DNA of 24,267 nt from an uncultured Spirochaetales bacterium (GTDB lineage: Bacteria; Spirochaetota; Spirochaetia; JABMQR01), in the NCBI GenBank assembly GCA_964433385.1, contig CAYSRK010000298.1, positions 1 to 24,267 of the forward strand, written 5' to 3'. Under the pieces are notes generated by a model. The model saw only the letters and a list, made by a program, of their open reading frames with translations. It searched no databases and was not told the origin of the DNA. Below are positions 3-19,182 of the stretch, one piece after another (the stretch's first letter is position 1; the number at the start of each line of letters is the position of its first letter). Position numbers and translations under genes: made by a program.

Positions 3-353
3 TTCTACGAAGGCTGGGCTTTCAGCATCAACCGCTACACCGATGTGCCGGATGCCGCCCTGAAGGTGCTTGAGGTGATGTTCGACTTCCCGGTCCAGAA
101 GCTTTTCAACCTCTCCCAGGGGCCGCTGCAGGCGCATGTGGATGTCTATTCAGACCCGGACGTGCTGGCGAACAACCCCAACATGGATATCATCTATGAT
201 GTGGCCGTCACGGCAAAGCCGCCGCTCCCCTCACCGAACTATGTGGAAATCTCCGATATTCTCCGGCGCCAGATCCACAGCGTCCTGACCGGACAGAGCC
301 AGCCGAAGGCAGCGCTTGATCAGGCTGCGAAGGAAATCAACGCCATCAGGTAG
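3..353 (+). CDS. ABC transporter extracellular solute-binding protein (carbohydrate/CUT1 type), C-terminal part; 5'-truncated by the window
   Basis: The frame is open from position 3 (FYEGWAFSINRYTDVPDAALKVLEVM...). The C-terminus PxSPNYVEISDILRRQIHSVLTGQSQPKAALDQAAKEIN is typical of family-1 sugar-binding proteins, and two permeases follow. Confidence 0.85.
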   Translation, partial: FYEGWAFSINRYTDVPDAALKVLEVMFDFPVQKLFNLSQGPLQAHVDVYSDPDVLANNPNMDIIYDVAVTAKPPLPSPNYVEISDILRRQIHSVLTGQSQPKAALDQAAKEINAIR

Positions 354-396
354 AGGTACTACGGTATTTTTAAGCAGAACTTGCGGAATAATTGAG

Positions 397-424
397 GCAC
401 ATGCCCCCGAATCGGGGGCTGTGC
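397..424 (+). other. GC-rich stem-loop between the binding-protein and permease genes (likely mRNA stabiliser or attenuator)
   Basis: GCACA-T-GCCCCCG-AAT-CGGGGGC-TGTGC; no U-tract follows. Confidence 0.55.
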
Positions 425-478
425 TGTATACTTCTGCAGTGAAAAGAACAGGCGGACTGCAGCAGGAGGAGTACGGAC

Positions 479-1642
479 ATGCTATCTGATAATGTAGCTG
501 TGTCCCTGTTGGGGATCATTGCAGCGTTTTTTGGAATATATCTCCTTCTGGCTATGGGGATAACGATGCTCAGGCGGGCCGCAGCCCTCTCGGGCGGCAG
601 CGGGGCGCTCAAAGCGGCAGTCGTTGCTGACGGGGCGCTCTATATCCTCGCCCTTGCAGGATTTCTCATCCGTCCCCGTATCGCCTTCTATCCCGCCGCA
701 GCAGCAATAGCACTCAGTTTTATTCTTGGAGCAGCGCTGCGCAAACGCACTTCCGGCCGTACGCTCACCGAGCATGAGCTGGGAATCTTTTTTCTGCTGC
801 CCGCCTTCCTGGGCGTAATTGCCCTCTACTACTACCCGATTACCCAGACGCTCATCTACAGCCTGCATGATATGAAGTACTCGGCTGACTGGACACAGAG
901 TGCCTTCATCTGGTTCAAGAACTACGCGTACGCCTTTGAGTCGGAGAATTTCCGCAGAGCCTTCGGCTTTACCGGCTACTTCACTCTGGGGACGGTTACG
1001 CTGAGCTTTCTTCTCGGGCTGGGCATGGCGCTTACCTCCTACTGGATAAAGGGCACCTTCAGCAGCTTCGTCAAGGCAGTCATCGTTATCCCGTGGGCTA
1101 TTCCTATGATCATAACCGCCTCCATCTGGCGCTGGCTCCTCAACGCGGAAGTCGGCCCTGTCGCCCTGCTGCGGCAGTGGGGGATTATTGATCAGGTTCC
1201 CGTATTTCTCTCCGATCCGCTGCTGGCCGTCCACAGCGTCATCCTTGCAGACGCCTGGAAGTGGGCTCCTCTTGTGGCGATCTTCCTCATCGGCGCCCTG
1301 GCCACCATCCCGGAGGAGATGTTCGATGCGGCGAAGGTGGACGGAGCCGGTGCTTTTCGGAGATTCAGATCGATCACCCTTCCCATGATAGCCCCGACAA
1401 TTTTTGTTGTACTGATGTTCAGGACCATGGAAGCGCTGCGGATTTTCGATATTGTCTACGGCATGACCGGAGGCGGACCGGGGATAGCAACCGAAACGCT
1501 GAGCACCTTTTCCTACAAGTACTACTTCTCCTATTCCCGCTTCGGTACAGGATCGGCATACGCCATGGTTGTATTTGTCATCATTTTGCTGTTCAGCTTT
1601 CTGTATGTGAACAGAATGTATAAAAATCTGAGGTTCCGCTGA
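479..1642 (+). CDS. Carbohydrate ABC transporter permease (MalF/UgpA-like) with an extra hydrophobic N-terminal extension
   Basis: RBS AGGAGGAG upstream; many TM segments; EAA-like loop ALATIPEEMFDAAKVDGAGAFRRFRSITLP. Confidence 0.93.
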   Translation: MLSDNVAVSLLGIIAAFFGIYLLLAMGITMLRRAAALSGGSGALKAAVVADGALYILALAGFLIRPRIAFYPAAAAIALSFILGAALRKRTSGRTLTEHELGIFFLLPAFLGVIALYYYPITQTLIYSLHDMKYSADWTQSAFIWFKNYAYAFESENFRRAFGFTGYFTLGTVTLSFLLGLGMALTSYWIKGTFSSFVKAVIVIPWAIPMIITASIWRWLLNAEVGPVALLRQWGIIDQVPVFLSDPLLAVHSVILADAWKWAPLVAIFLIGALATIPEEMFDAAKVDGAGAFRRFRSITLPMIAPTIFVVLMFRTMEALRIFDIVYGMTGGGPGIATETLSTFSYKYYFSYSRFGTGSAYAMVVFVIILLFSFLYVNRMYKNLRFR

Positions 1643-2496
1643 TGAACAGTGCCGCTACACATCGTCTGAAAAGAAAGGCTGACAAGGTGCTCTCCCATAT
1701 TACCGGGCTGCTGATTGTTCTCTTCTGTATCGGTCCGCTGCTGTGGATACTCACCACATCCTTCAAGCCCATGGGAGCTGAATTTCAGACCCCGATTGAG
1801 CTGTTTCCCTCCAAGCCCTCACTGCAGGCCTACCGGACGGTGCTTGTGGACCTCAAGTTCTACAGCCCGATTCTCAACAGCTTTATCGTTTCCTCCGCGA
1901 TAACCGTGCTCGGATTGTTCGTTGCGGCGCTTTCTGCCTACGCGATAGCCAGACTGCGCATCAAGTACAAGATTCAGTCGCTCTTCCTGCTCCAGATAGG
2001 AGCCATGATTCCCCCGGTCGTCACGATTGCCCCGACGTTCGTGATCATCCGCTCCCTCGGCCTGCTCAGTTCGCTCCCCGGGCTCATTCTTCCCCATATT
2101 TTTTACATGACACCCATCGCAACGTGGCTTCTGGCAACCTACTTCGCTGAAATACCCTTCGAGCTTGATGATAATGCGCGCATCGACGGCTGTACGAACT
2201 TTGAGATTTTCTGGAAGATCATCCTTCCTCTCGGCGCCCCGGGACTCTTCTCAGCTGGAATATTCGCCTTTCTCGGTTCCTGGGGTGAGTTCATGCTTGC
2301 CTCTTCAATCACCATGGGGGTGAAGGGAGTTCAGACGGTTCCGGTAGCCATCCTGAACTTCTCCTTTGAACACAGGACGCAGTGGACCTGGATATCGGCG
2401 GGGATCATGCTGTCCCTAGTACCGATCCTGCTCCTGGTCATACTCTTCCAGAAAAAGGTAATCAGGGGACTGACAGCAGGCGCGGTGAAAGGCTGA
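1642..2496 (+). CDS. Carbohydrate ABC transporter permease (MalG/UgpE-like)
   Basis: TGATG stop/start overlap with the upstream permease; EAA loop IPFELDDNARIDGCTNFEIFWKIILP; C-terminal FQKKVIRGLTAGAVKG. Confidence 0.95.
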   Translation: MNSAATHRLKRKADKVLSHITGLLIVLFCIGPLLWILTTSFKPMGAEFQTPIELFPSKPSLQAYRTVLVDLKFYSPILNSFIVSSAITVLGLFVAALSAYAIARLRIKYKIQSLFLLQIGAMIPPVVTIAPTFVIIRSLGLLSSLPGLILPHIFYMTPIATWLLATYFAEIPFELDDNARIDGCTNFEIFWKIILPLGAPGLFSAGIFAFLGSWGEFMLASSITMGVKGVQTVPVAILNFSFEHRTQWTWISAGIMLSLVPILLLVILFQKKVIRGLTAGAVKG

Positions 2497-2516: not shown

Positions 2517-3548
2517 CTACGGCGCCGCTGCGGTGGACTTCCTGATAATAAGATCAACCGGAAACTTCTTGACCACCCGATTCTGATACTCACGCTCGAT
2601 CCTCTCAAGAATCAGTTTTCCGGCCTGCATTCCGATACTGTAGGCTGGGGGACCGATGGTAGTCAGCGGCGGGTTGAAGGATTCGCTGCCCGGCTCGTTG
2701 TTGAACCCGATAACCGAAATGTCATCAGGGACCGAGAGTCCGGCAGCGTAGGCGCTTCCGATCACTCCCATCGCCATCGTATCAGTTATCGCAAAGACTA
2801 CTGTGGGACGGGGGTTCAGGCGAAGCAGATCTTCCATGGCATGCCAGCCTCCGGCGGCAGTCCAGTCGCCCTGCCTGAAGTAATCCTGCGGCACATTGAT
2901 GGCAAGCTCGTCCAGGATTCTCCTGATCAGCTCGACCCGCATGCGGGCGTGAACTGACCGTTCATACCCGGTAACTATCCCGAAATTCCGGTGGCCGAGG
3001 TTTATGAGGTGTGAGAAGGCGGTCTTTATGCCGTGGTAGGCGTCTATGAGGAACATGTTGATATGTTCGTGGGGAATATCCCGGTCAATAACCAGCACCT
3101 CCGTGCTGTTTTTGAAGATTTCGAACGGAATGTCATGTTCGCTGCTGCCGACCGAACCGACGTAGACGATTCCGCTGACCCGCTGCCGTACAAGGGCCTT
3201 GCTGATCTCAATCTCCTCAAGCGGATCCTCCTGGGAGCTGCAGATGATGACCTCGTAGGGCGAATCCTTCATGGCGTCGTAAAAACCGCGGGTTATCCGC
3301 GCAAACGCGAGATTTGAGAAGTTCGGGACGACCATTGCAAGGAGATTGCTCTTGGCTGTCTGCAGACCCCGAGCTATCAGGTTGGGATGGTAGTTAAGCG
3401 TCTGAATCGACTCCTGAATCTTCCGGAGGGTTTTCTCTTTCACCTTTTCCGGATGGTTGATCGCCCGCGAGACGGTTGAAGCGTCCACTCCGACACTTGA
3501 TGCGATATCCTTCAGAGTGACCGGGGATGCTGCCTTTCTACTTTTCAT
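2517..3548 (-). CDS. LacI-family transcriptional regulator
   Basis: HTH VTLKDIASSVGVDASTVSRAIN, hinge YHPNLIARGL, periplasmic-binding-like effector domain ending PPLTTI...LIIRKST. Start set at the ATG at 3548 (MKSRK); the ORF-track start at 3590 is possible but less likely. Confidence 0.93.
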   Translation of the reverse strand: MKSRKAASPVTLKDIASSVGVDASTVSRAINHPEKVKEKTLRKIQESIQTLNYHPNLIARGLQTAKSNLLAMVVPNFSNLAFARITRGFYDAMKDSPYEVIICSSQEDPLEEIEISKALVRQRVSGIVYVGSVGSSEHDIPFEIFKNSTEVLVIDRDIPHEHINMFLIDAYHGIKTAFSHLINLGHRNFGIVTGYERSVHARMRVELIRRILDELAINVPQDYFRQGDWTAAGGWHAMEDLLRLNPRPTVVFAITDTMAMGVIGSAYAAGLSVPDDISVIGFNNEPGSESFNPPLTTIGPPAYSIGMQAGKLILERIEREYQNRVVKKFPVDLIIRKSTAAAP

Positions 3549-3670
3549 ACACAGCCTACAAGGAAGAAGATCGTACTGCCGCAGCCGCAAAGCGCTGCCG
3601 GTTTAAACAGGGCGGAACCCCTGCCGCTCAGAGCAGTGCGTAAGACTGCCCTGAATCGTCATAATGATCA

Positions 3671-3699: not shown

Positions 3700-3714
3700 T
3701 CCTCTCTGCCGGGT

Positions 3715-4749
3715 TTACCAAATGTAATGTTCGAGCGAACGGACTTTGCAGATCAGCTTCGGAAGCCGGTCGATGGTGACAAAACCCGGGGGCGCGTTTA
3801 TGACGTCCGGGATCCGGTTGACAATCTGGGAACTCGTTCCGAGCAGCGTGGGCGGATTGTCGTTGCGCATATGGATCTCGGGAACCCCCCTGATGTACCA
3901 CTCATTGAAGTCGACCTCGCCCTCATCGTAGGCCCTGCCGGTCATAGTACCCTTGAAGAGAATACCTTCAGCTGTATCGATTTCTATAGTGATATCGAGA
4001 CCGATGACATCCCCGGGAGGAATCATGGTGCCGCGGCTGCGGCAGGGAACGGCGTGGTCTCTCGTAAGCGGCGTGACGATTTTCCGGAAGGCTTTCGGCG
4101 TCAGTCCGAGCTCGGCTATCTGGTTCTCTAGGTCCATCCGCAGAAAGTCGACCTCGTCCCCGATGGGGAACTTCTCGCCCGCATCGATCATCGCCTGGAT
4201 CTCATCCAGCTTGCGGCCGACGGCGTAGAAGCCGGCCACCATCTCTCCAAGCGCGTCGACGTTCACGCTTACCTGTCCCTCGATCGCATCTATCCTCTGC
4301 GAAGCGCCGGTCAGGTGGGTCACAATCGTAGCCCAGAAGATATCCTGCATGCCTGACCCGGTCACGGTCACCCCGTTTTCCTTGGCAATCCGGTCAAGCT
4401 TCGCGGTAACGGTGGGGGAGGCTGTCCAGGGATAGGAGGCTTCCTCTGATGTCGTTATCACATTCAGTCCTGCCTCAAGGCACTTTTTGACATGGGGATA
4501 GATGATATCCATCGATGTGGCAAGAGCCATGAGCGCGATATCGGCTCCCGTCTCCGCCAGGACGGCGTCAACATCATCCCTGATGCATACGTTGAGCTTG
4601 CGGTCAAGCCCGAGCACATCGCCTAAATCCTCGCCCACGTGGGTTATGTCTACAGCATCGGTAATGATGACTCCTTTTTCCAGCATGAACCGGGCAATAT
4701 CCTTGCCTACCGTCCCCGCTCCATATACCAGTGCCTTTACTTTCTCCAT
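3715..4749 (-). CDS. NAD(P)-dependent amine dehydrogenase (native AmDH / 2,4-diaminopentanoate dehydrogenase Ord-like family)
   Basis: N-terminal Rossmann YGAGTVG; ITTSEEASYPW with Glu102; VTVTGSGMQDIFW; C-terminal NDNPPTLLGTSSQIVNRIPDVINAPPGFVT typical of the family; RBS AAGGAG. Confidence 0.8.
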   Translation of the reverse strand: MEKVKALVYGAGTVGKDIARFMLEKGVIITDAVDITHVGEDLGDVLGLDRKLNVCIRDDVDAVLAETGADIALMALATSMDIIYPHVKKCLEAGLNVITTSEEASYPWTASPTVTAKLDRIAKENGVTVTGSGMQDIFWATIVTHLTGASQRIDAIEGQVSVNVDALGEMVAGFYAVGRKLDEIQAMIDAGEKFPIGDEVDFLRMDLENQIAELGLTPKAFRKIVTPLTRDHAVPCRSRGTMIPPGDVIGLDITIEIDTAEGILFKGTMTGRAYDEGEVDFNEWYIRGVPEIHMRNDNPPTLLGTSSQIVNRIPDVINAPPGFVTIDRLPKLICKVRSLEHYIW

Positions 4750-4773: not shown

Positions 4774-4787
4774 TACAAACGATTGGA
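4774..4787. promoter_or_regulatory. LacI-type operator O1
   Basis: TACAAACGATTGGA, a pseudo-palindrome with central CG, just downstream of the predicted AmDH -10. Confidence 0.6.
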
Positions 4788-4791
4788 TTTA

Positions 4792-4820
4792 ATAGTACAC
4801 CGTTTGCACGATGATGTCAA
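4792..4820 (-). promoter_or_regulatory. Predicted sigma70 promoter of the amine dehydrogenase; its spacer and -10 overlap operator-like site O2 (4795-4808, GTACACCGTTTGCA)
   Basis: Minus strand TTGACA-N17-TACTAT, near consensus. Confidence 0.75.
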
Positions 4821-4978: not shown

Positions 4979-5007
4979 TTGTCAAACGAGGGGAAGTGTG
5001 GTATGAT
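4979..5007 (+). promoter_or_regulatory. Predicted sigma70 promoter of the corrinoid protein-mttB-RACo operon
   Basis: TTGTCA-N17-TATGAT with an extended -10 (TGn). Confidence 0.72.
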
Positions 5008-5020
5008 TACCTGAAAAAAA

Positions 5021-5034
5021 AGCAAACGTTTGTA
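5021..5034. promoter_or_regulatory. LacI-type operator O3
   Basis: AGCAAACGTTTGTA with a perfect core CAAACGTTTG, a few nt downstream of the predicted +1. Confidence 0.7.
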
Positions 5035-5082: not shown

Positions 5083-5733
5083 TTGAAGGAACAGCTGTTT
5101 GCCGAACTGGCAGAAACCGTGCATACTTTTGACAGAGAGCGGGCTGAGAAGCTCGCGTTAGAGAGTATCGCTGCGGGAATAGACCCGTTGGAGACGCTTG
5201 AGGCGCTCACAAAGGCGATACGGGAGATCGGGGACCTCTACGATTCCGGGGAGGTGTTCCTGCCCGAGCTGATAGCCGCCTCAGAGGTAACCTCGGCTGC
5301 ATCGGCCCCGCTGGAAGCGGAAATTGAGCGGTGCAACATGAAGAAGCAGAGCATGGGCCGGGTCGTCATCGGGACGGTGTTCGGCGATATCCATGACATC
5401 GGAAAGAACATGGTTGCGACGCTGCTGCGGGCATCGGGTTTTGATGTGTACGACTGCGGAACGAACGTAAAGTCCGATCTCTTCATAGAGCGCATCCGCA
5501 GGGAACAGGCCGACCTGCTGGCCCTCTCCGCCCTGCTCACCACTACTGCCGAGGAGCAGCGCAGGACCATATCCGCTCTGAAGGAGCAGGGGCTGAGGGA
5601 CACGGTCGGTATCATGGTCGGCGGCGGAGGGATTACAAAGAAGTTTGCCGACGACATCGGGTCTGACGGGTATGCGGCAACCGCCTCAGGAGCGGCAGCG
5701 CTCGCGAAAAAGCTCTTAGGCCTCGCTGACTGA
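5083..5733 (+). CDS. Corrinoid (cobalamin-binding) protein, MttC/MtbC-like
   Basis: N-terminal cap domain; GTVFGDIHDIGKNMV (DxHxxG), SALLTTT, IMVGGG. TTG start at 5083 after AGGAGGAG. The ORF-track extension to 4639 runs through the promoter region and overlaps the AmDH gene. Confidence 0.93.
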   Translation: MKEQLFAELAETVHTFDRERAEKLALESIAAGIDPLETLEALTKAIREIGDLYDSGEVFLPELIAASEVTSAASAPLEAEIERCNMKKQSMGRVVIGTVFGDIHDIGKNMVATLLRASGFDVYDCGTNVKSDLFIERIRREQADLLALSALLTTTAEEQRRTISALKEQGLRDTVGIMVGGGGITKKFADDIGSDGYAATASGAAALAKKLLGLAD

Positions 5734-5770: not shown

Positions 5771-7213
5771 ATGGGAAGAAGGGGAGTGGAACCGGTTATT
5801 GCCCCGGTTGAGATGCTGAGCGCCGATCAGGCGGAACAGGTGCACCGGGCAACGCTGCGGGTCCTTGAGCGGACCGGGGTGAAGATGGAGCACCCCGAGG
5901 CGCTGAAACTGCTGGGAAGGCACGGCTGCACAGTTGATGGGGAGTCCATGCTGGTGAAGTTTCCTCCGGAACTGGTCGAGGAGTGCCTGAAGCTGGTTCC
6001 CCAGCGCTACACCGTCACTGCCGCGCTTGAGGAACATGCACTGGAGTTCTCCACCGAAAGACTCTACTTTACCCATACCTCGGGCATGCAGTCGGTCGAC
6101 CTTGAGACGATGGAGCAGAAAGTTCCCGACAAGGGAGAGTATATCGAGGCCATTCGGGTCCTTGATGCGCTTGAGACAATCGATATGCTCGGCTGCTACC
6201 CCTACTTCGGGTTTGAGGGAACCGAGTCCAAAATGGAGATCCCGGCCGGGGTGGCGCTCAACCTTACCTACTGCGGAAAGCATCAGGCGGCTGCCTGTTC
6301 CAACGATTCTGAACTGTTCACCTTCCAGATGGCTGAAGCGGCCGGGCAGGAGGTTTCGGCCACAATCGGTTCTTCTCCCCCGCTTACCTGGGGGGAGAAG
6401 GCGATAGAATCGGCCTTCCGCATAGCGAAAGCCGGATATCCTCTCTCCACGGTAGACGGTGCCATGATGGGCGGGACCGGGCCGGCAACCCCCATCGGTT
6501 CGGTGGTTATGAGCAATGCGGAGCAGATGGCCATGATAGTGCTGACTCAGCTGCTCAGTCCGGGGCACCGGATGCTCATAGGCCACTTCTCCGCCCCGTT
6601 GAATATGAGGACCGGGTCCCCCGCCTTCGGTCAGATAGGAGCCTCTATCAGCAACACCCTCTTCAACCAGATGTGGCGCCGCTACCGAATTCCGTTCAGC
6701 AACGGCAGCCCGGGTTACGTCAACGCCAAGACGATCGACTACCAGGCCGGGTATGAGAAGGGGATAGCCGGCATCCTTTCCGGCCTCTCGGGAGCGAGCC
6801 TTATGCTTTTCCACTTCGGTGTCTCAAGCGAAGTCAGCGCCCATCCGCTCCAGGCGGTCCTTGATGACGATGTTGCCCGGATGATAGCGCGCTTTCTGCG
6901 TGGTGAAGAGATCAGCGAGGAGACGATTGCCGAGGAGCTGATCAACGAGGTCGGGCCTATTCCCGGTCACTACCTCAGCCGGCCGCACACGATGAAGTGG
7001 TTCAGGAGAGAACAGTGCATTCCCAAATCAGCCGACACCCTCACCTACGCCGACTGGATTGAGAAGGGTAAAAAAACGGCGAGGGACTATGCCCTTGAGC
7101 GAATGCAGGCCATTCTGGCTGCCCCGGAGAAGATCTATCTCAGTTCCGGTCAGCTTGCCGACATCGAAAAAATACTTGAGGATGCCCGCCGCTACTACAG
7201 GAACCGGGAATGA
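5771..7213 (+). CDS. mttB: Trimethylamine methyltransferase (MttB) superfamily protein, pyrrolysine-free
   Basis: N-terminal LSADQAEQVHRATLRVLERTGV; GPATPIGSVVMSNAE; NAKTIDYQAGYEK; C-terminal INEVGPIPGHYLSRPHT...W; no in-frame TAG; RBS AAGGAG. Confidence 0.88.
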   Translation: MGRRGVEPVIAPVEMLSADQAEQVHRATLRVLERTGVKMEHPEALKLLGRHGCTVDGESMLVKFPPELVEECLKLVPQRYTVTAALEEHALEFSTERLYFTHTSGMQSVDLETMEQKVPDKGEYIEAIRVLDALETIDMLGCYPYFGFEGTESKMEIPAGVALNLTYCGKHQAAACSNDSELFTFQMAEAAGQEVSATIGSSPPLTWGEKAIESAFRIAKAGYPLSTVDGAMMGGTGPATPIGSVVMSNAEQMAMIVLTQLLSPGHRMLIGHFSAPLNMRTGSPAFGQIGASISNTLFNQMWRRYRIPFSNGSPGYVNAKTIDYQAGYEKGIAGILSGLSGASLMLFHFGVSSEVSAHPLQAVLDDDVARMIARFLRGEEISEETIAEELINEVGPIPGHYLSRPHTMKWFRREQCIPKSADTLTYADWIEKGKKTARDYALERMQAILAAPEKIYLSSGQLADIEKILEDARRYYRNRE

Positions 7214-9081
7214 ATACCTCCGGCCAGCGGCAGTCCAGGCGTTTCACCGTTGTTCCCGACGGTGCAAAGACGCTCCTCACGCTGCTCAATGCCCAGGGGG
7301 CGGACATACAGGCGCCCTGCGGCGGGCTTGGAGTCTGCGGAAAGTGTATCGTCCGCATACTATCAGGCTATGCGGGTGAGCCTGAGAGCGCCGAGCGGGT
7401 ACTGCTCTCCGCACAGCAGCTCTCCCAGGGGTTCAGGCTCGCCTGCAGAACCGCGGTTCACGAACCGCTGGAGGTCGAGGTTCCCCATTCCGTGGCTGAA
7501 ACTGCGGGAAAGGGGCGCTTGAGGGTACGGGGAAGCCGGGGAAGCGGTGGCGGCTGGACGGAGAAGCGGGCTGTCCTTCTTGATGAGCCGCAGCTCGGCA
7601 GCCGGGAGTCGGAGCTTGCCCGCCTGAGACGCGTTATTCCCGGGCTTTCGGCGCAGGTCGATCCTGCAGCTGTCGCTGAACTCGCTGCGGCGCTTACAGT
7701 CGGCAGAACCGTCACCGCCGTAACGGCAGCCGGTGAAGCCGGGCAGCAGCAGCTCCTCGGGTGCGAAGCCGGCGATACCTCCGGAATCCTTCTCGGCTGT
7801 GCCGTCGATATCGGGACTACCACCGTGGCTGTCTATTTGGCTGACGTCAGGAGGCAGACTGTCATCGGTTCACTGTCGCAAGCCAATCGGCAGGGCCGCT
7901 TCGGAGCTGATGTCATCTCACGGATTGATCAGTTCAGCCGCGAAGGCGGGACTGAACTGACCAGCCTCGTCCGAACCCAGGTCCGGACCATGATCGAAAC
8001 GCTCTGCAGCCGCTGCAGCGCGGAACCTCGCCAGGTATACTCCGTAGTCTGCGTAGGAAACCCCGCCATGCTGCACCTGTTCATCGGGGCTGACCCGTCC
8101 GGAATTGCCCTGGCCCCCTTCACCCCGGTTTTTACCGAACAGCTGCTGTTTCCTGCCCGCACGTTCGGGCTCGGAGTAAGCCCTGCGGCAGCGGTCTGTC
8201 TGCTGCCGGGCGTATCAGCGTATATCGGATCTGATATCACCGCAGGCATCTTCTCAAGCGGGATGGATGAGGAGGAGGGGCCTGTCATGCTTATCGATAT
8301 CGGGACAAACGGTGAAATGGTGCTTACCCGCGGTGATGCCTACTGGACCTGCTCTACCGCCGCCGGCCCGGCTTTCGAGGGGGCTCGCATTCACTGCGGC
8401 TGCGGAGGCGAGGCGGGCGCGGGTGACTCGTTCTTCCTGGATGAGGAAGGCAACTGCTTATTCACCACAATTGGGGGAGAGGCTCCAACCTGCATCTGCG
8501 GGGCAGGCCTGGTCGATATCGCAGCCGCCCTGCTGAGGGCGGGAATAGTGGACCGGCGCGGAAAGCTTCGAGGTTTCAGCGAGTGGTCAGAGCATGCCGC
8601 CGCCCCCGATGAGTATAAGCGGCGGCTCTCATCCCGCTGGACCGAATACCAGGGCAAGGCGGCATGGACTGTAGTTCCTGAAACCGGGATCATCATTACC
8701 CAGAAGGATATCCGTGAGCTGCAGCTCGCCAAGGCAGCGATTGCCGCCGGCATCGAGATACTGCTCAAGGAGGCGGGTATAGAACCTGAATTGCTGCAGA
8801 AGCTGTACATAGCCGGCGGGCTCGGAAGCTCTATTCGCAGGGAGAGTGCCGCATCGATCGGGCTCTTTCCCGCCGGCCTGCTGGAGAGAACCGCAGCGCT
8901 CGGCAGCTCAGCCGGTTCGGGCGCGGTCTCAGCGCTCCTTGATCCCGGTTCCTTCTCCCAAAGTTACTTCCGCTGCTCCGCTGCAGCCTATATCGAACTC
9001 TCGGCCCGTCCCGATTTCTCCCGGATCTTTGCCCAAAGCATGTTCTTCCCGCCGCAGGAGCCGGAGGCTACTCCGGCATAA
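7210..9081 (+). CDS. ASKHA-type ATP-dependent corrinoid reductive activase (RACo/DUF4445) with an N-terminal [2Fe-2S] domain
   Basis: APCGGLGVCGKC...RLAC; VDIGTTTV; IDIGTNGE; STAAGPAFEG; ITQKDIRELQLAKAAI; ATGA overlap with mttB. Confidence 0.92.
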   Translation: MNTSGQRQSRRFTVVPDGAKTLLTLLNAQGADIQAPCGGLGVCGKCIVRILSGYAGEPESAERVLLSAQQLSQGFRLACRTAVHEPLEVEVPHSVAETAGKGRLRVRGSRGSGGGWTEKRAVLLDEPQLGSRESELARLRRVIPGLSAQVDPAAVAELAAALTVGRTVTAVTAAGEAGQQQLLGCEAGDTSGILLGCAVDIGTTTVAVYLADVRRQTVIGSLSQANRQGRFGADVISRIDQFSREGGTELTSLVRTQVRTMIETLCSRCSAEPRQVYSVVCVGNPAMLHLFIGADPSGIALAPFTPVFTEQLLFPARTFGLGVSPAAAVCLLPGVSAYIGSDITAGIFSSGMDEEEGPVMLIDIGTNGEMVLTRGDAYWTCSTAAGPAFEGARIHCGCGGEAGAGDSFFLDEEGNCLFTTIGGEAPTCICGAGLVDIAAALLRAGIVDRRGKLRGFSEWSEHAAAPDEYKRRLSSRWTEYQGKAAWTVVPETGIIITQKDIRELQLAKAAIAAGIEILLKEAGIEPELLQKLYIAGGLGSSIRRESAASIGLFPAGLLERTAALGSSAGSGAVSALLDPGSFSQSYFRCSAAAYIELSARPDFSRIFAQSMFFPPQEPEATPA

Positions 9082-10423
9082 CGGCGTCTATGCGCTCCTG
9101 AAGCGCCTCCCGGCTGGGAATGATGGAGGAGAAGGCGAGCTCTCCGTTGATATAGATGCTCGGCAGCTGCGTCACCCGCATCTTCTGTGCCCTGACGATA
9201 TTCTCCATCGAAGCAGAAGCCTTGTACTCCACTACATCGATACGGTCACCGTAGGTCTCCTTCGCATCCATGGCAGACTGGTACATGTAGGTGCAGGCGG
9301 CGCAGGTGACTGAATCTATGGTGAAGACCTCGATAAGCGGACGTTCAAGAGCACCGTAGTCGGGCAGGCTCACCGCAATATCCTGACTCTGCCGCTCGTA
9401 CCCGGCGATCAGGCGGCGGGTCTGCTCAGTTTGGTGAACCGCCTGTTCGCAGCCGACGCAGTTTTCCACAGGGGTATCGTAGGGCATATCGCACCCGGGG
9501 GAGATGATCAGATTCCGATGGTCTACGGCGTCGAGCTCATCAATGACGACTTTCATATTGTCCTGCTGGCTGCCGAAGAGCATGACTGAGGCGAGCGGGA
9601 TATTGCCGCCGAGGACGACGTTATAGCGGTCGGTTACCGCTTTGGTCGCGGCGAAATCGAGGTTTTCATCCACGGAAATACCGTCAGGCTCGGTTCTGCA
9701 CATGACTTCTATGTTTTTCGTCGCATCCCCGCAGACGAAGAAGCTGGAAAACCGTCCGAGTTCCCGGATACGGGAGTGGAGCTTCAGGTAGGGTTCGTGC
9801 ATGAACTGGGTGAAGTGCTTCGGCGATATCTGGGAAATAAGCGGATCAACCGGGGCAAGAATGTCGGCGCCGGCTTCAGCGTAGTACTCTGCCATAGCGA
9901 CGGCAATCTCTGTGGTCCAGCTGAGCAGCCGGGTCACATAATCGGGGTCCTTGATGAAATCCATGAAGATGTTCGTTCCCCGCAGGTGGGAGGCAAGGGT
10001 AAAGGGACCGCAGAAGAGACCGTAGATGGCCGTCGTGTCCCCGACTGCCTCGCTGAGCGCTTTTGCAGCAGCAAGGGCAAGCGGAATGCGCCCGGCCTCC
10101 CGGCTTGGGATACTGTCCGGAATATCCTTGCCGGAGGAGAGCGGATGGGTGGTCACTGTGGCAGGGGAGTCCTTTGCCCACATGAGATCACAGCCGAGAG
10201 CCTCTGCTTCGATCTGCAGATCAAACATGACCGTCTGTCCGTCAGGCCTGTAAAGCTGGTGCGCCTTCAGCAGCGCCCGGTTCAGGGTCTCAAGTTTTGT
10301 GTAGACCTCCTGCGCATCGGCGCCGATCAGTTTTCCGGCATGCACGCCGGCAAACGGTACCCAGGGAACTGCATCGGCCTGTTCATGTCTGAATACCGCA
10401 TATATACGTTCCTTTCCTGTCAT
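9068..10423 (-). CDS. MtaA/CmuA (uroporphyrinogen decarboxylase fold) methyltransferase-family protein fused to a C-terminal thioredoxin-like domain
   Basis: UroD-fold motifs FDLQIEAEALG, GPFTLASHLRG, FFVCG, GGNIP, ISPGCDMPYDTPVEN. The last ~100 aa read EVFTIDSVTCAAC...VTQLPSIYING, a thioredoxin/glutaredoxin pattern with CxxC and cis-Pro. RBS AAGGAG. Confidence 0.85.
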   Translation of the reverse strand: MTGKERIYAVFRHEQADAVPWVPFAGVHAGKLIGADAQEVYTKLETLNRALLKAHQLYRPDGQTVMFDLQIEAEALGCDLMWAKDSPATVTTHPLSSGKDIPDSIPSREAGRIPLALAAAKALSEAVGDTTAIYGLFCGPFTLASHLRGTNIFMDFIKDPDYVTRLLSWTTEIAVAMAEYYAEAGADILAPVDPLISQISPKHFTQFMHEPYLKLHSRIRELGRFSSFFVCGDATKNIEVMCRTEPDGISVDENLDFAATKAVTDRYNVVLGGNIPLASVMLFGSQQDNMKVVIDELDAVDHRNLIISPGCDMPYDTPVENCVGCEQAVHQTEQTRRLIAGYERQSQDIAVSLPDYGALERPLIEVFTIDSVTCAACTYMYQSAMDAKETYGDRIDVVEYKASASMENIVRAQKMRVTQLPSIYINGELAFSSIIPSREALQERIDAVMPE

Positions 10424-10479: not shown

Positions 10480-10493
10480 TGCAAGCGTTTGTA
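10480..10493. promoter_or_regulatory. LacI-type operator O4, upstream of the MtaA-like gene
   Basis: TGCAAGCGTTTGTA, matching O1 and O3. Confidence 0.65.
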
Positions 10494-10555
10494 TTAATGT
10501 TCAGCAAAATAGTCAGATTAGTATTATCGGGGTGCAGTAATGAATTGTTTCTTAC

Positions 10556-10569
10556 ATCAATCGATTGTA
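10556..10569. promoter_or_regulatory. LacI-type operator-like site O5
   Basis: ATCAATCGATTGTA with a perfect core CAATCGATTG. Confidence 0.5.
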
Positions 10570-10570: not shown

Positions 10571-11122
10571 TTATACGGACTGCGGCGGCTGAGGGGTGAG
10601 CAGTTTTTCAAAGAGTCCTGATATGACTTCAGTTACTGCCTCCTGTGAAGGGTCGGTACGGAATCCTCCCGCCTCCCGGTAGGCCCGGTCGGGAGTGAGC
10701 CCGCCTTTGATCGCGTTGACCTGGCGAGTGAACGCCTGATCCTCCCCGAGAATGTGGGTAATCAGCCAGCTTGATAGGAATGCGAGTACGTCGACCATGC
10801 CGTTTCCTTGACCGCTGCGCAGAGAGTGGAAGCAGATGTCGATTTTCCTGATGAAACTGAGGTGGGCAGCCTTATGCCGGGAGGCTGACTGCACGGCGAT
10901 ATCGAGAAGATCCATCCACTCCTCTTCGGTTCTGAAGTGGGTATCGGCAAACTCTGTGAGCCGCTCCCGCAGCTTCTCCGTCTGAGAAGCGGAGGAACTG
11001 CTGCCGGATGCAGCAAGGCCTGCTGCATCATTGAGGATCTCTATGAGGCTCCGGTGCTGCGCATCAACTAAGGCTATCCCTGTTTCCAGAACAGGATTCC
11101 AGCTGATAATCTCTTTAGTCAT
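10571..11122 (-). CDS. Bacteriohemerythrin (stand-alone)
   Basis: W...ETGIALVDAQH; THFRTEE (HxxxE); HKAAH (HxxxH); WLITHILGED (HxxxxD). All di-iron ligands are present. 8-bp overlap with the kinase stop. Confidence 0.92.
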   Translation of the reverse strand: MTKEIISWNPVLETGIALVDAQHRSLIEILNDAAGLAASGSSSSASQTEKLRERLTEFADTHFRTEEEWMDLLDIAVQSASRHKAAHLSFIRKIDICFHSLRSGQGNGMVDVLAFLSSWLITHILGEDQAFTRQVNAIKGGLTPDRAYREAGGFRTDPSQEAVTEVISGLFEKLLTPQPPQSV

Positions 11123-14100
11123 GACTCTCGTACTCCCCTGAGGATTTCCGTATCAGATTCTGCACAAGATCAACCGCCTTCTGATATTCATACCGGCTCA
11201 GCGCCCTGCCCAATGAGGAGGCGGCGCTGCCGAAGAGTGCGCTGAACAGGGTGCTGTTTTCTTCAAAAACCGCATTGGAGGAGGTGTCGTTTTTTTCCAG
11301 CAGCGCCACGAAGCGGCTGAGCAGCGGCTGGTGCTCCTCTATCAGGTGCGGGTCACCCTGAGCGGCAGGGGTAGCCGGCTGCTCGAGCGGGGGAGGCAGT
11401 ATCGGCGCCAGGGAGGCGACCATCCGGTTGAAATCAGCGATGAAGCCAAAGACAAGCGGAGAGAGCTCCTCCGCCTCGGCACCGCCAGCGATACTGTTCT
11501 CAAGCACCCCCGCAGCTTCCGAAAGCACACGCATGCCCAGGGTCCCGGTGAGCGATCTCAGGTTGTGCACAAACCCGCGCAGGGAGGGGTAATCTCCCTC
11601 CCTGAAAGAGGCCTCCATCAGTTCCCCGTCTTTTTCGTGTTTCCTGAAGAACTGCTCGACCATTTTGCGGTAAAGCTGGGCATCTACCATCAGATACTTG
11701 AGGCCGCAGACGGTATCTATACCGGGAATCTGCTGCAGCCGGGAGAGAAGTTCCCCGGCAGGCTCAGGGTTCGCCGCGGTCGGTTCTGGGTCAGATGCCG
11801 CTTCAGCAGTCTTTTCCTTCAGGGGATCGGCAGCAGGAAGCCAGGCAAGAAGCCGTTCGTAGAGAACCTCCGGTTCCACTGGTTTGCTGATGTGATCGTT
11901 AAGACCGGCATGTATGCTCTCCTGCATATCTTCGGAGAATGCCTGAGCTGTCATGGCAAGAATGGGAACCGAATCCCAGCCCGGAAGGGTGCGGATGATC
12001 TTTGTCGCTTCATACCCGTTTATTCCCGGCATCCTGATATCCATGAGCACCAGGTCGTAGCGCTTAGCCCTTGCCAGTTCAACGGCCTCACGTCCGTTGG
12101 ATGCCACATCGGGCCGTATGCCGGCACCCCGCAGAAGCTGGCAGGCAAGTTCCTGGTTGATCTCATTGTCTTCGACCAAGAGCACTGACACGTTCCCGGC
12201 GGCTGCTTTCAGCCGCTCCGCCATGCGGTGTTCCCGACCGTCCTTATCCTGCTCCTCCGCGCTCTGCTCAGGGAGCACTCCCTCACGGCGTCGGGTTTCA
12301 ACGGAGCGTTCGGGCGGCAGGGGAAGGGTGAAAGGAATTTCCAGGATAAACTCCGAACCGGCGCCCTCCACGCTCTCGACGGTTATGGATCCGCCCATTA
12401 TCTCCGCCAGTCGCCTGCTGATGGCAAGCCCGAGTCCGGTTCCCCCGTAGCGGCGCGAGGCGGAGCTGTCACCCTGCTCGAAGGCCTGAAACAGGGTCTT
12501 AACGATATCAGGGGAAATGCCGATGCCCGTATCCTGTACACTGAACTGCAGCAGGATACGCTCCTTATCCTGTGAGAGAACCCGGCCTTTCACCCGTACA
12601 CTGCCGGCATCGGTGAATTTCACAGCATTTGAGACGAGGTTGAGCAGTATCTGGGAGAACCTTCGCCCGTCTCCGACAACCGCTTTCGGGATGCTGAGCG
12701 TGCTGGCCGAGAGATCGAGACCCTTCAGGTGGGCCTGTTCGGAAACGATTTCCAGGACCCGGCTGACTGTTTCGGCGGGATTGAAGCTCTCCTCAATCAG
12801 GGTCATCTTGTCGGCGTCGATTTTTGAGACATCAAGGATGTCATTGATGACTTTCAGGAGGGGAGCAGCGGAGCTGAGCAGCTTCTTGAGCTTCTCCCCC
12901 TGGCTCACAGGCAGCGGATCCTGCTGCATCAGGTAGGCGTATCCGAGAACAGCGTTCATCGGGGTACGGATCTCATGGCTCATGTTGGCCAGGAAGGTGC
13001 TTTTCGCCCTGTTCGCAGACTCGGCCTTCTCCCTTGCCCGTTCGAGCTCCCTCGTACGTGAGGCAACTATCTCCTCAAGGTGGAGCCGGTACTCATCAAG
13101 CGTGCGGGTGGTTTCCATGACGTCAGTTATGTCATGAATGATCCCCAGGACAGCCTCAGGAGTCCCTTCATCGTCAAACTGCGACTCGCCCTGCAGTTCC
13201 GCCCAGCGGGTATGCTCTCCCTGGAAAAAACGGCTGGTTATCTTGAACGGGACCCCGCCGAGAGCTCCCTCCCAAGCCCGGACGAGAGCGGGCAGGTCTT
13301 CCGGGTGGATGTAACGCGGGAAGAGGTCGGCATGGATTTCCCGCTGCCGCGGGATGCGGAATATATTCCGCGCTTCTTCAGATATGAAAAGCGTATCTTC
13401 CTTGATATCGTAGTACCAGTGTCCCGTGTGAGAAATTGCCTGCGCCCGCTCGAGAAACTTCTCATTGCGGCGCAGCGCTTCAACAGCGGTCTGCCGCTCG
13501 CGGTTGAGCAGCACTATGCTGATCTGGTCGGCAAACTGTCCGGCGAAGGTCTTCTCATCATCCTTCCACACTCTCTGGGATTCGAGGGTCGAGAGGATGA
13601 ACACCCCCCTCAGCCTGCCGCCGAAGGCTATCGCTGAGAAGAGCACCGAAGAGATTCCCTGGGAGAGTAAAAAATGGTTCTTGAAGGTTTCGTTCATGCC
13701 GGTGAAGCGGGGGATGTCTGTAACGGCGATCGTCCTGTTCTCGATGAGCGAGTCGAAATTGATGGAGAAAGTATCAAGCTTGACATCGGGAAGGCTTCTG
13801 TGCAGGGCATTCCGCGGTTCATAGATGTCGCTGCAGACGGCGCTGCGATTGTCTTCGCTGAACATCCAGATCGAAATCCGGTCAACGGCAAAGACCTCGG
13901 CGAGCATCTCGGTCAGCTTCGGGGAGATGGTGCCGCCTGGCCTGTTTTCACGTTCGGCCTCAGCAACCGCGGCAAGTATTTTCGGATAGGTCTTAAGCCT
14001 TCTGAGGTAGGCTGCCTGCTCCCTCTCCTGCCGCTCCGTTCTGGTGATATCACGCCAGGTGGCGTGTATCAGGAGGTTTCCGTGATGCATGATCGGCTGG

Positions 14101-15718: not shown

Positions 15719-15753
15719 GGCTGCATCCTACTGAGAGAATGCGGGGAGAGCGT

Positions 15754-16308
15754 GTGAAGAAGGGAAGAATCGAGTTTTCCATGGTTACCACCCGCGGCGG
15801 AGACCGGGGGGAGACGTCACTCTACAACGGTGAACGCCGCAGAAAGGATGATTTTATCTTTGAGGTGCTCGGAGACCTTGATGAACTGAACTCCGCGCTG
15901 GGTGTGGTTCGGGCGAAGACAGAACTGCCCGAGCTTCTTGCTGTGCAGAAGCAGCTGCTCGTCGTCGGCGGAGTTGTCGCAACCCCGAAGCAGAGCGCCG
16001 AGTATACGGGTATACCGCACCTGCGCCCCGAGGCGGTCGAAGAGCTGGAAAAACGGGAGCGCGAGCTGCTTGACCGGGCTGTACTGTCAAGTTCTTTTAT
16101 CTGTCCCGGTGAGACTGTCGTCTCCGCCGAGACGGATGTAGCCCGCACGGTTGCCCGTCGCTGTGAGCGGAGGGTCGTCACCCTCATCCGTGACTACGGC
16201 CGCAGCGACTTGATTGACGCGCAGCACTACCTGAATCGGCTTTCGGATTATCTGTTTATCCTCGCACGGGTCCTCGAACAGCAGGCTGACCTTGGCGGCG
16301 GGATCTGA
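15754..16308 (+). CDS. Cob(I)alamin adenosyltransferase, PduO type
   Basis: TTRGGDRGETSL...RRRKDD..FEVLGDLDELNSALG and ARTVARRCER...YLNRLSDYLFILAR. GTG start at 15754 after GGAG; ATG 15739 or ATG 15781 are alternatives. Confidence 0.92.
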   Translation: MKKGRIEFSMVTTRGGDRGETSLYNGERRRKDDFIFEVLGDLDELNSALGVVRAKTELPELLAVQKQLLVVGGVVATPKQSAEYTGIPHLRPEAVEELEKRERELLDRAVLSSSFICPGETVVSAETDVARTVARRCERRVVTLIRDYGRSDLIDAQHYLNRLSDYLFILARVLEQQADLGGGI

Positions 16309-16320
16309 GCGTGGTAGAAT
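16292..16320 (+). promoter_or_regulatory. Predicted deoC promoter, overlapping the end of the adenosyltransferase gene
   Basis: TTGGCG-N17-TAGAAT with an extended -10 (TGn). Confidence 0.55.
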
Positions 16321-16366
16321 AGATACGGGCTTCAACGGCTGAGCGCTGGAACCAGGGAGGAAGAAG

Positions 16367-17032
16367 ATGGAAAATAAAGCTGCTTACATTGATCACACCA
16401 TACTGAAGGCCGATGCCGTAAAAGAGCAGGTTCTGCAGGTATGTCGTGAGGCGAAGGAGTTCGGTTTTGCCGCGGTATGCGTGAATTCAGCCCGGGTTCC
16501 GCTCTGCGTCGAGGCTCTTGCCGGCTCATCGGTAAAAGTCTGCGCGGTGGTCGGTTTTCCCCTCGGGGCCATGCTGACCGAGGCCAAGGCGTTCGAGGCT
16601 CAGGCAGCCGTTGCTGCAGGCGCGCAGGAGATCGACATGGTCATTAATATCGGCGCTCTCAAGGACGGTGATGATGCCTGGGTGGAGGAGGATGTCAGGC
16701 AGGTGAAGATAGCCTGCGGCGACAGCCTGCTGAAGGTCATCATTGAGGCATGCCTGCTCACAGAAGAGGAGAAGGTACGTGCCTGCCGTCTGGCCAAGCG
16801 GGCGGGTGCCGATTTTGTCAAAACCTCCACCGGGTTTTCCCTCCATGGAGCCACCCCCGAAGATGTCGCCCTCATGCGCTGTACGGTGGGTGATGATATG
16901 GGAGTGAAGGCCGCCGGCGGTATCCGCACCCTCGCCGATGCCGAAATCATGATTCGTGCCGGCGCGAACCGGCTGGGAACCAGCGGCGGGGTCGCCATAA
17001 TGAAAGGCGAACCGTTTGAAACGAGCTACTGA
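16367..17032 (+). CDS. deoC: Deoxyribose-phosphate aldolase
   Basis: [51 protein letters not shown]; RBS GGAGG. Confidence 0.97.
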
Positions 17033-19174: not shown

Positions 19175-19182
19175 GATCTATT

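Follow-up and report, generated by a model that had tools for sequence, protein, structure and literature searches.

The window analyzed here is the whole contig stretch of 24,267 nucleotides (positions 1 to 24,267 of CAYSRK010000298.1) from an uncultured Spirochaetales bacterium, with freshwater sediment as its source. It contains a gene for a dehydrogenase of the native amine dehydrogenase (nat-AmDH) family, referred to below as AmDH, together with genes for a regulator, an importer and corrinoid-dependent methyl transfer. The features around AmDH are as follows.

3–2496, plus strand: CUT1-type ABC importer, with the 3′ end of the binding-protein gene at 3–353 and permease genes at 479–1642 and 1642–2496
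2517–3590, minus strand: LacI-family regulator, 124 nt downstream of AmDH and on the same strand
3715–4749, minus strand: nat-AmDH-family dehydrogenase, an ORF of 344 amino acids
4774–4787: predicted LacI-type operator, core CAAACGATTG at 4776–4785, 27 nt upstream of the AmDH ATG and directly 3′ of the predicted −10 box
4792–4820, minus strand: sigma-70-like promoter of AmDH (TTGACA, 17 nt, TACTAT), 10 of 12 matches, a consensus match only
4979–5034, plus strand: promoter-like site (TTGTCA, 17 nt, TATGAT with TG) and second operator, before the corrinoid/MttB operon
5083–5733, plus strand: corrinoid (B12-binding) protein
5771–7213, plus strand: pyrrolysine-free MttB-family methyltransferase of 480 amino acids (PF06253, E 5e-70)
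7210–9081, plus strand: RACo/RamA-type reductive activase of corrinoid proteins
9068–10423, minus strand: MtaA-like (URO-D family) methyltransferase with a C-terminal thioredoxin-like domain
10480–10569: two more operator copies (cores 10482–10491 and 10558–10567), upstream of the MtaA-like gene

The AmDH ORF fills 3715–4749 exactly, as an earlier note on this DNA had it, but the strand must be corrected to minus; the plus-strand frame over the same interval is packed with stops. The importer binding-protein gene begins on another contig of the same genome (C5) and is complete in the related locus L001 (14334–15656); its product is most like binders of trehalose/maltose and of sulfoquinovosyl-glycerol. 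The MttB-family protein is taken to be pyrrolysine-free because its 480-residue ORF is uninterrupted, and it scores 260 bits against the cut-off of 525 set for true MttB. The neighboring methyltransferase gene of the earlier note is thus real, while the methylamine specificity ascribed to it is unproven, the gene encoding a pyrrolysine-free member of the MttB family. Four short metatranscriptome contigs from one library match the AmDH and MttB genes at 99% identity or more, with DNA carry-over possible, and are a weak hint that both genes are expressed; stretches that lack such contigs carry no meaning.

The AmDH product carries a Rossmann GAGTVG motif of the GxGxxG type close to its N terminus (residues 10–15), the segment ITTSEEASYPW with Glu102 and Glu103, and GSGMQDIFW at residues 131–139, all as first read from the letters. 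Glu102 is the catalytic glutamate, aligning in HMMER alignments with E108 of CfusAmDH and E104 of MsmeAmDH (numbering from Supplementary Data 5 of PMC11164908). In a phmmer search of the PDB the protein matched 6IAQ (MsmeAmDH; E 3.8e-74), 6IAU (CfusAmDH; 1.1e-54) and 7R09 (1.4e-36), and residues 141–332, C-terminal to the Rossmann domain, matched PF19328 (Pfam DAP_DH_C) with 27.8 bits against a gathering score of 23.3. The AlphaFold model (pLDDT 87.6) gave Foldseek TM scores of 0.88 to both 6IAQ and 6IAU and of 0.90–0.91 to 7R09/7ZBO, the next unrelated folds reaching 0.59 at most. The resemblance to nat-AmDHs is not a matter of chance, and the family assignment proposed earlier is borne out by the agreement of phmmer, Foldseek and Glu102 at pocket position P3.

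The best match in both sequence and structure is MsmeAmDH (PDB 6IAQ; group G3, Elisee et al. 2024), which at ~41–45% identity shares the two-domain fold, the catalytic glutamate and 13 of 21 pocket positions (P2–P4, P6–P8, P11, P15 and P17–P21), as mapped by pairwise HMMER alignments in which P15 is ambiguous because of an insertion. The AmDH pocket consists of T78, S101, E102, G133, M134, Q135 and F138 (P1–P7); W139, V160, V162, N163, L167, V171 and Y175 (P8–P14); and P195/V200, D201, F202, M269, G271, T301 and T305 (P15–P21). It departs from MsmeAmDH at P5 (Met here, Tyr in MsmeAmDH), P10 (Val, Trp), P12 (Leu, Phe), P13 (Val, Leu), P14 (Tyr, Gln) and P16 (Asp, Thr), as well as in a five-residue acidic insertion between P15 and P16 and in Asp206. 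To our knowledge, MsmeAmDH has no known physiological role. Only Phe at P17 fits the published G3 pattern of Trp P10, Gln P14, Thr P16 and Phe P17 (PMC11164908), the other three positions being Val, Tyr and Asp here. The G4-type enzymes CfusAmDH (6IAU) and MATOUAmDH2 (7R09) share the fold, the NAD(P) site, the catalytic glutamate and Gln P6, Trp P8 and Asn P11 with AmDH, but the tyrosine stacked against the ring of the substrate (Y168 in CfusAmDH, Y171 in MATOUAmDH2) and Tyr173 are aliphatic in AmDH, and His181 (P14) of the G4-type reference is Tyr.

Relatives of AmDH form a tight and rare clade with 68–85% identity, whose members come from Spirochaetota, Thermotogota, Chloroflexota and a single Bacteroidota MAG. 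In the tree its 22 sequences occupy one branch (SH-aLRT 100%, stem 0.46) whose sister is a pair of sequences that includes one from Natronobacterium gregoryi, a species whose enzymes were placed in G3 (PMC11164908). Among the G3 enzymes that have been tested, the two most closely related are Natronobacterium L0AKI4 and L0AKZ3, and their rows in the 2024 lysate-screen table read ‘nd’ throughout (PMC11164908). A search of 6 same-order genomes and of 250 genomes sampled from the phylum found no clade member, a result that speaks to rarity only. Glu102 is invariant in 22 of 22 members, and the pocket is characterized clade-wide by Met at P5, Ile/Val at P10, Leu/Phe at P12 and Tyr at P14. P10 and P12 are thus aliphatic in the AmDH of the window (Val and Leu) where relatives carry aromatics, non-clade sequences having Trp/Tyr/Phe at P10 and Tyr at P12 (53 of 57); the P13 residue of the clade, Val, is also the commonest one outside it (39/57). 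The inserted P-x-G-D-E-V, around I196–V200, is invariant, and the acidic residues in or beside the pocket loops (Asp198, Glu199 and, beyond the insertion, Asp206) are shared by all members, though the insertion loop has pLDDT <50 in the model. In the cofactor site R1 is Asp34 in all 22 members and R2 is Val/Ile/Leu, which fits the published NADH rule and thus marks an NAD-type motif; AmDH therefore probably prefers NAD+, whereas MsmeAmDH is cited as NADP-dependent.

The group G2 enzymes, AmDH4 and the 2,4-diaminopentanoate dehydrogenase Ord, belong to the same superfamily and share its Glu-dependent chemistry, but AmDH lacks their carboxylate- and amine-binding residues, stands in another gene context and scores 131.3 bits with the NCBIfam Ord equivalog NF040740, for which the cut-off is 400. 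Of the nat-AmDHs matched in the PDB, AmDH4 scores lowest (68 bits vs 253 for MsmeAmDH), and its ligands N135, R161, H197, H264 and Q266 are replaced by Q135, V160, P195/V200, M269 and G271, with the loss of the Arg, His and Gln that bind substrate. The claim that the enzyme is not Ord holds on both counts, and the motif given for Ord in the earlier note fits the published G2 signature (P4–P6 = G, I/V, N), where AmDH has G, M, Q. None of the 81 gathered sequences was a true Ord, all scoring 125–180 bits against the 400-bit cut-off.

An exact LacI-type palindrome is positioned just downstream of the −10 box at both divergent promoters, that of AmDH and that of the corrinoid/MttB operon, where the core is CAAACGTTTG at 5023–5032. 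The degenerate core CAANCGNTTG occurs in four copies in the window against 0.35 expected, a number reached in 0 of 100 shuffles, and all four are intergenic and lie at promoters of the cluster. A clean signal came only from this degenerate core; strict palindrome scans did not find the operator, and a 12-mer search allowing mismatches gave no significant result. Genome-wide the core is not enriched (17 copies vs ~41 crudely expected), and only the extended form T[GA]CAANCGNTTG[TC]A picks out the regulon. Elsewhere in the genome the operator is present at the promoter of the importer and of a non-Pyl MtmB homologue (C5:2089), and at two sites (C255:5291 and 5433) before an operon encoding a Zn-ADH, a xylulokinase-like FGGY kinase, a TRZ/ATZ amidohydrolase, a further Zn-ADH, an Ftr-like protein and an AKR. 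The motif recurs 39–46 nt upstream of AmDH in related loci L001, L003, L005, L010 and L014, and in the first four of these the LacI gene stays beside AmDH. It is missing from the Caldilineae and Thermotogae loci, one of which (L018) has a GntR regulator nearby, so the evidence for co-regulation covers the Spirochaete-type loci and L014 only. These observations support the assignment of AmDH to a local LacI regulon with a putative operator. Co-regulation with a corrinoid methyltransferase, as suggested earlier, is upheld by the operator at both promoters, in related loci and at the other operons, while the identification of that partner as a methylamine methyltransferase is not; the genomic clue has more behind it than the earlier note supposed.

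Conserved more widely as a partner is the non-Pyl MtmB homologue, encoded just beyond the window, which has no in-frame UAG and is for that reason considered to lack pyrrolysine. It aligns with MtmB (1L2Q) over its full length (E 7e-41). The closest known system is MtqB/MtqC of Methanococcoides methylutens Q3c, a non-Pyl MtmB acting as tetramethylammonium/choline:corrinoid methyltransferase (PMC13044021), which is likewise pyrrolysine-free and paired with a corrinoid protein; unlike it, the partner here is bacterial, is tied to sugar-type import, AmDH and sugar-catabolic genes, and has no archaeal CoM branch. Characterized pyrrolysine-free relatives of MttB and MtmB use quaternary amines and not free methylamine (PMC13044021).

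The same gene set is found beside AmDH in three phyla. Spirochaete loci retain AmDH, the LacI gene, the importer, the corrinoid protein and the non-Pyl MtmB, with the MttB set optional. In two Caldilineae loci (L015 and L018) and on a Thermotogae contig (L100), AmDH is near an FGGY kinase, a DhnA aldolase, an amidohydrolase, a Zn-ADH, an Ftr-like protein, an AKR, a corrinoid protein and an MtmB homologue. Among 70 control loci of non-clade nat-AmDHs (1.19 Mb), by comparison, there was no match to MtmB, MttB, corrinoid protein, FGGY kinase, amidohydrolase or Ftr-like protein. The MttB set is absent from L005 and L011, and the visible neighbors differ in L013 and L014, which makes the pathway modular; AmDH may serve only one module of it. 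An AOR gene adjoins AmDH in three Thermotogae MAGs and immediately precedes it in an operon of a sister lineage, a hint that the AmDH product is an aldehyde.

Taken jointly, the reading that the gene encodes a cytoplasmic member of the nat-AmDH family, closest to group G3 with its MsmeAmDH-type enzymes, and that this dehydrogenase removes nitrogen by deamination within a LacI-controlled catabolic regulon is one that we moderately favor. The reaction would best be read as an oxidative deamination that uses NAD and acts on an amine intermediate resembling a sugar or polyol, its direction, place in the order of steps and substrate class being inferred. The CUT1 sugar-type ABC system would import a sugar- or polyol-like nitrogen compound bearing N-methyl groups; pyrrolysine-free MtmB-/MttB-family enzymes would transfer methyl groups to corrinoid proteins, and from there a pterin- or MtaA-type second methyltransferase would take them on; and the TRZ/ATZ-type amidohydrolase and the Ftr-like protein would take off amidine or formyl nitrogen substituents. 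AmDH would then act on the remaining primary amine, with Glu102 holding the ammonium while hydride passes to NAD+, and hydrolysis of the imine would yield a carbonyl and NH4+. The product, most likely an aldehyde or keto-sugar, would be handled by the AKR, the Zn-ADH, the xylulokinase-like kinase and the DhnA-type aldolase or, in Thermotogota, by a tungsten AOR. Characterized non-Pyl MttB/MtmB enzymes leave tertiary and not primary amines, so demethylation alone is no obvious source of the AmDH substrate. None of the compounds considered fits all genes: choline (to ethanolamine), inosamines, rhizopines, N-methyl aminoglycosides, mycosporine-like amino acids, ribitylamine from flavin or lumazine breakdown, methylated nucleosides and betaine-lipid head groups. 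More specifically, and as a tentative proposal that we hold somewhat more doubtful than not, AmDH would carry out the deamination in an anaerobic pathway, horizontally mobile and not described before, in which MtmB/MttB enzymes harvest methyl groups first and the skeleton passes to the AKR/polyol dehydrogenase, kinase and aldolase.

Other roles for AmDH were weighed against the same genes. It is unlikely, given that the conserved importer is of sugar and not nucleobase type and that amidohydrolase and AmDH lie in separate operons in Spirochaete genomes, that the TRZ/ATZ-type amidohydrolase hydrolytically cuts an alkyl- or polyol-amine from an N-substituted heterocycle (e.g., a methylated purine-type nucleoside or base) and that AmDH deaminates the leaving group. 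The amidohydrolase does follow AmDH directly in both Caldilineae loci (gaps of 26 and 53 nt), and it scores best with the group of MTA/SAH deaminase, 8-oxoguanine deaminase and AtzB; alkylamine release is known in that group, for example from N2,N2-dimethylguanine hydrolase (PMC13054789). A nucleoside-type BMP ABC system after the MtmB gene in this genome and a xanthine-dehydrogenase-type Mo enzyme next to the MtmB homologue in L018 point the same way.

We regard it as improbable that AmDH acts on a secondary N-methyl amine (R2CH-NH-CH3) and frees methylamine for the neighboring MtmB homologue; the earlier note had raised methylamine and secondary amines as possible substrates. The Leu reported to restrict the size of the amine partner is bulkier than the Val present at P13, and natural enzymes with small P13 residues aminated cyclohexanone with methylamine, but P13 is Thr and not Val in 9 of 10 methylamine-active enzymes, and Val is not specific to the clade. 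Likewise, the most conserved partner is the MtmB-family gene with its corrinoid protein, and MtqB shows slight demethylation of monomethylamine; set against this, the homologue is without pyrrolysine, and the sole characterized non-Pyl MtmB prefers choline and tetramethylammonium.

That AmDH works reductively, converting a keto- or aldo-sugar that the cell has taken up into an amine, for instance to build an amino compound or to trap ammonia, appears very improbable: all characterized nat-AmDHs were assayed as reductive aminases and the reaction is reversible (PMC11164908, PMC9325545), but the NAD-type cofactor motif, the setting of importer, repressor, kinase and aldolase, which is typical of catabolism, and the AOR beside AmDH in Thermotogae argue for the opposite direction. 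A true Ord of ornithine fermentation, the name given by JGI to one close homologue and the one suggested by the C-terminal DAP_DH_C domain, is refuted at sequence level by the equivalog score, the PDB scores and the missing ligands, and by a gene context of LacI, ABC importer and corrinoid methyltransferases that includes no ornithine-fermentation genes, and we give it next to no credence.

Enzymes of the nat-AmDH family are wanted as catalysts for chiral amine synthesis, the Ord group contains the sole members with an assigned natural substrate, and for group G1 a published genome-context analysis gave no clear answer on the natural substrate (PMC11164908). The context of the present clade is unusually informative, with one repressor, one importer, two corrinoid demethylase families and a complete sugar-type lower pathway across three phyla, and the natural substrate should therefore be findable by ordinary experiments. 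The combination of aliphatic P10 and P12, Val at P13 and acidic Asp198, Glu199 and Asp206 is present in no enzyme tested by the 2024 survey (PMC11164908), and so the substrate range may be new, extending to polar, hydroxylated or larger amines. If AmDH is indeed the deaminating step of such a pathway, a nat-AmDH from outside the Ord group would for the first time have a physiological substrate. Non-Pyl MtmB enzymes, for which a single function is known so far, would gain a second one and be linked in anaerobic bacteria with the removal of nitrogen and the catabolism of sugars.

The AmDH gene lies on the minus strand at 3715-4749, encodes 344 amino acids and begins at an ATG at 4749 preceded by an AAGGAG ribosome-binding site, while the plus-strand frame over this interval has stops throughout. 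The translation begins with a GxGxxG Rossmann motif, and TSEEASYPW with Glu102 and GSGMQDIFW, both reported in the earlier note, are present, the former within ITTSEEASYPW, which also contains Glu103. The DAP_DH_C domain scores over the Pfam gathering threshold, and all top PDB sequence matches are native amine dehydrogenases (nat-AmDHs): MsmeAmDH (6IAQ, E 3.8e-74), CfusAmDH (6IAU, E 1.1e-54), MATOUAmDH2 (7R09, E 1.4e-36), TtherAmDH (7XDU, E 1.4e-28) and AmDH4 (6G1H, E about 1e-17). An AlphaFold model built from an alignment of 24 relatives (pLDDT 87.6) matches the same five structures with TM 0.80-0.91; unrelated folds come next, at 0.59 or below. The family is known, and the kind of enzyme is itself not new.

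The pocket was mapped with the published 21-position definition (P1-P21, P3 being the catalytic Glu; Suppl. Data 5, PMC11164908) and residue-wise alignments to the PDB nat-AmDHs. From P1 to P21 it reads T78, S101, E102, G133, M134, Q135, F138, W139, V160, V162, N163, L167, V171, Y175, P195/V200, D201, F202, M269, G271, T301 and T305. Family group G2 (Ord/AmDH4) is marked by P6 Asn, P9 Arg, P15 His, P18 His and P19 Gln (PMC11164908). None of these five residues is found at the corresponding positions in the AmDH pocket alignment, and therefore the contrast drawn earlier between GSGMQD and the Ord-type G-x-G-I-N-P-G holds. Identity as 2,4-diaminopentanoate dehydrogenase (Ord) is ruled out, the NCBIfam equivalog for that enzyme scoring 131 bits vs a cut-off of 400.

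Homologues of AmDH form a tight set at 68-100% identity, the next ones lying at 50% or below. Of 81 family members placed in a maximum-likelihood tree, the 22 of this clade make up a single branch (SH-aLRT 100, stem 0.46) whose sister consists of two sequences, one from Natronobacterium gregoryi; a 2024 survey places both N. gregoryi enzymes it tested in group G3 (PMC11164908). Clade genomes include a Sediminispirochaeta MAG (85% identity to AmDH), a Spirochaetaceae MAG (74%), three 'Thermotogae' MAGs (71-76%), a Saccharicrinis (Bacteroidota) MAG (69%) and two Caldilineales MAGs (68-69%). Six further genomes from the window's order, and 250 sampled from its phylum, yielded no member. The gene's rarity and its patchy spread over phyla suggest horizontal transfer.

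Several pocket features set the clade apart. P5 is Met in 22/22 members, P13 is Val and P14 is Tyr; P10 is Ile/Val/Met vs Trp/Tyr/Phe in other family members, and P12 is Leu/Phe/Met vs Tyr in 53 of 57 non-clade sequences. An invariant P-x-G-D-E-V insertion lies within the P15-P17 loop, which is modelled at low confidence, and Asp206 is also invariant (Thr/Ser/Val/Ala/Asn in others). The P10 Tyr of solved enzymes stacks against the ring of the substrate (PMC9325545); since the clade does not keep this aromatic residue, its predicted substrate binding mode must differ from theirs. At the cofactor positions, Asp (R1) and Val/Ile/Leu (R2) agree with the published NADH-preference rule. The clade is new and uncharacterised, and its pocket is unmatched by any enzyme tested in the 2024 survey. 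In the lysate screen, the closest tested relatives are 'nd' in all their rows, which fits a specialised natural substrate but proves nothing.

In the window, the AmDH gene is accompanied by the following genes:

Plus strand: CUT1 importer, comprising the 3' end of a binding-protein gene and two permease genes
Minus strand: LacI gene, together with AmDH (3715-4749)
Divergent from AmDH: genes for a corrinoid protein, a pyrrolysine-free MttB-family protein and a RACo activase
Convergent to the preceding three: MtaA-like gene with a thioredoxin-like domain

The 24 kb contain four copies of the palindromic operator core CAANCGNTTG, all of them intergenic, vs 0.35 expected (0/100 shuffles reach that number). 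One predicted operator (4776-4785) sits directly 3' of the -10 box of a good sigma-70-like AmDH promoter, another (5023-5032) follows the divergent promoter's -10 box at a distance of about 16 nt, and two precede the MtaA-like gene. In five related loci (L001, L003, L005, L010 and L014), the same operator precedes the AmDH start by 39-46 nt. The co-regulation with a methyltransferase proposed in the earlier note is supported by predicted LacI-type operators at both divergent promoters. Farther along (10571-15548), a stand-alone hemerythrin gene (Pfam) runs into the end of a 1477-aa ORF whose translation alone reads as a PAS/GAF hybrid histidine kinase, and both directly adjoin the oxygen-sensitive corrinoid genes. 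Translations alone of 15739-24267 indicate cob(I)alamin adenosyltransferase-like and DeoC-like genes, a 691-aa flavoprotein with a C-terminal Cys-rich region, a thymidine-phosphorylase-like gene, a BMP-type lipoprotein and a lysine-2,3-aminomutase-like radical SAM gene cut by the window end.

Across related loci, the most constant partner of AmDH is not MttB but an MtmB-family gene with its own corrinoid protein, located past the importer as seen from AmDH. The MtmB homologue (465 aa) aligns full-length to M. barkeri MtmB and has no in-frame stop, so it contains no pyrrolysine. In the window's genome it is split over two other contigs, C5 (L007 3-1076, minus) and C255 (L086 19114-19350), with a relative at L001 16782-18179; homologues of 40% identity occur in the Thermotogae and Caldilineae clusters. 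To our knowledge, MtqB is the only non-Pyl MtmB of known function. C5 further carries the corrinoid gene and the start of the binding-protein gene, with an operator between the two, and a whole-genome scan with the extended operator found two more places. On C255, operators at 5291 and 5433 precede an operon of a Zn-ADH, a xylulokinase-like FGGY kinase, a TRZ/ATZ-type amidohydrolase, a second Zn-ADH, an Ftr-like protein, an aldo-keto reductase (AKR) and a small URO-D protein. On a third contig, C300, an operator at 2189 precedes a metallo-beta-lactamase-fold gene (L087 1317-2159, minus), which has an AraC regulator and a second CUT1 importer as neighbours; L005 ends with a similar gene that is likewise accompanied by AraC. 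In this genome only, the MtmB homologue and a pterin-binding methyltransferase are separated by a BMP-family (nucleoside-type) ABC transporter on the same strand (L086 14395-19277).

The same gene set accompanies AmDH in other phyla. Two Caldilineae loci (L018, L015) carry GntR, Zn-ADH, FGGY kinase, DhnA-type aldolase, AmDH, amidohydrolase and a second Zn-ADH, then an Ftr-like gene, corrinoid protein, MttB, AKR and importer, with an MtmB homologue and its corrinoid protein nearby. A Thermotogae locus (L100) carries AmDH, AOR, FGGY kinase, aldolase, amidohydrolase, Zn-ADH, an Ftr-like gene and AKR, and further along a second AOR, a corrinoid protein and MtmB. The Ftr-like gene (L086 10548-11411; L018 13511-14383; L100 9567-10424) encodes a full-length homologue of archaeal formylmethanofuran:H4MPT formyltransferase (E 2e-40 to PDB 1M5S) within a sugar-type operon in three bacterial phyla, and its product may use an N-formyl amine as formyl donor. 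The same methyltransferase, kinase, amidohydrolase and Ftr-like genes were found at none of 70 non-clade nat-AmDH control loci (1.19 Mb), among which a DeoC-type aldolase occurs at one sister-lineage locus and an AOR at another. In a sister-lineage Chloroflexota locus (L102, 46% identity), AmDH has GntR/UTRA, a DeoC-type aldolase and an FGGY kinase nearby, so the sugar link may predate the clade; the locus also has two pairs of TPP-dependent E1 subunits and two glyoxalase-fold genes. At L103 5101-8029 (sister lineage, 47% identity), a saccharopine-dehydrogenase-like gene, an ADP-forming acyl-CoA synthetase and a tungsten AOR precede AmDH, suggesting an amine to aldehyde to acid route for this related nat-AmDH. 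In one Thermotogae MAG (L013 3364-7547), AmDH lies between a radical-SAM/SPASM maturase and an N-sulfoglucosamine-sulfohydrolase-like sulfatase, with an AOR upstream (731-2608), a setting unlike other clade contexts.

Nat-AmDHs catalyze reversible NAD(P)-dependent interconversion of amines and carbonyls, the nitrogen being held by the P3 Glu (PMC9325545). The NAD-type motif and the importer, repressor, kinase and aldolase context point to a catabolic oxidative deamination by AmDH. The CUT1 binding protein resembles disaccharide and sulfoquinovosyl-glycerol binders, and the AKR, polyol-type Zn-ADH and xylulokinase-like kinase look like a route from aldose through polyol and ketose to ketose-phosphate. 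AOR adjoins AmDH in three Thermotogae MAGs and directly precedes it in L103, which hints at an aldehyde product. Taken with the deamination context, these features favour a hydroxylated primary amine of the amino-polyol or amino-sugar type as the probable substrate. This amine could be left behind once the corrinoid systems have taken off the methyl groups, or it could be split off as leaving group by the TRZ/ATZ-type hydrolase; relatives of that hydrolase free alkylamines from N-heterocycles (PMC13054789). Free methylamine is a less likely link between AmDH and the methyltransferases, because the non-Pyl MttB and MtmB enzymes that have been characterised use quaternary amines (PMC13044021).

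Aquatic and freshwater-sediment metagenomes contain near-identical DNA. Short metatranscriptome contigs of at least 99% identity from one library, in which DNA carry-over is possible, cover AmDH (3710-3873, 4419-4555) and the MttB gene (5975-6127) and are weak evidence of expression. A published context analysis of the G1 nat-AmDHs found no conserved physiological context (PMC11164908). Outside ornithine fermentation, the gene neighborhood described here is the first physiological context of a nat-AmDH that is both conserved and defined by a regulator, and it makes the question of the natural substrate of nat-AmDHs directly testable.
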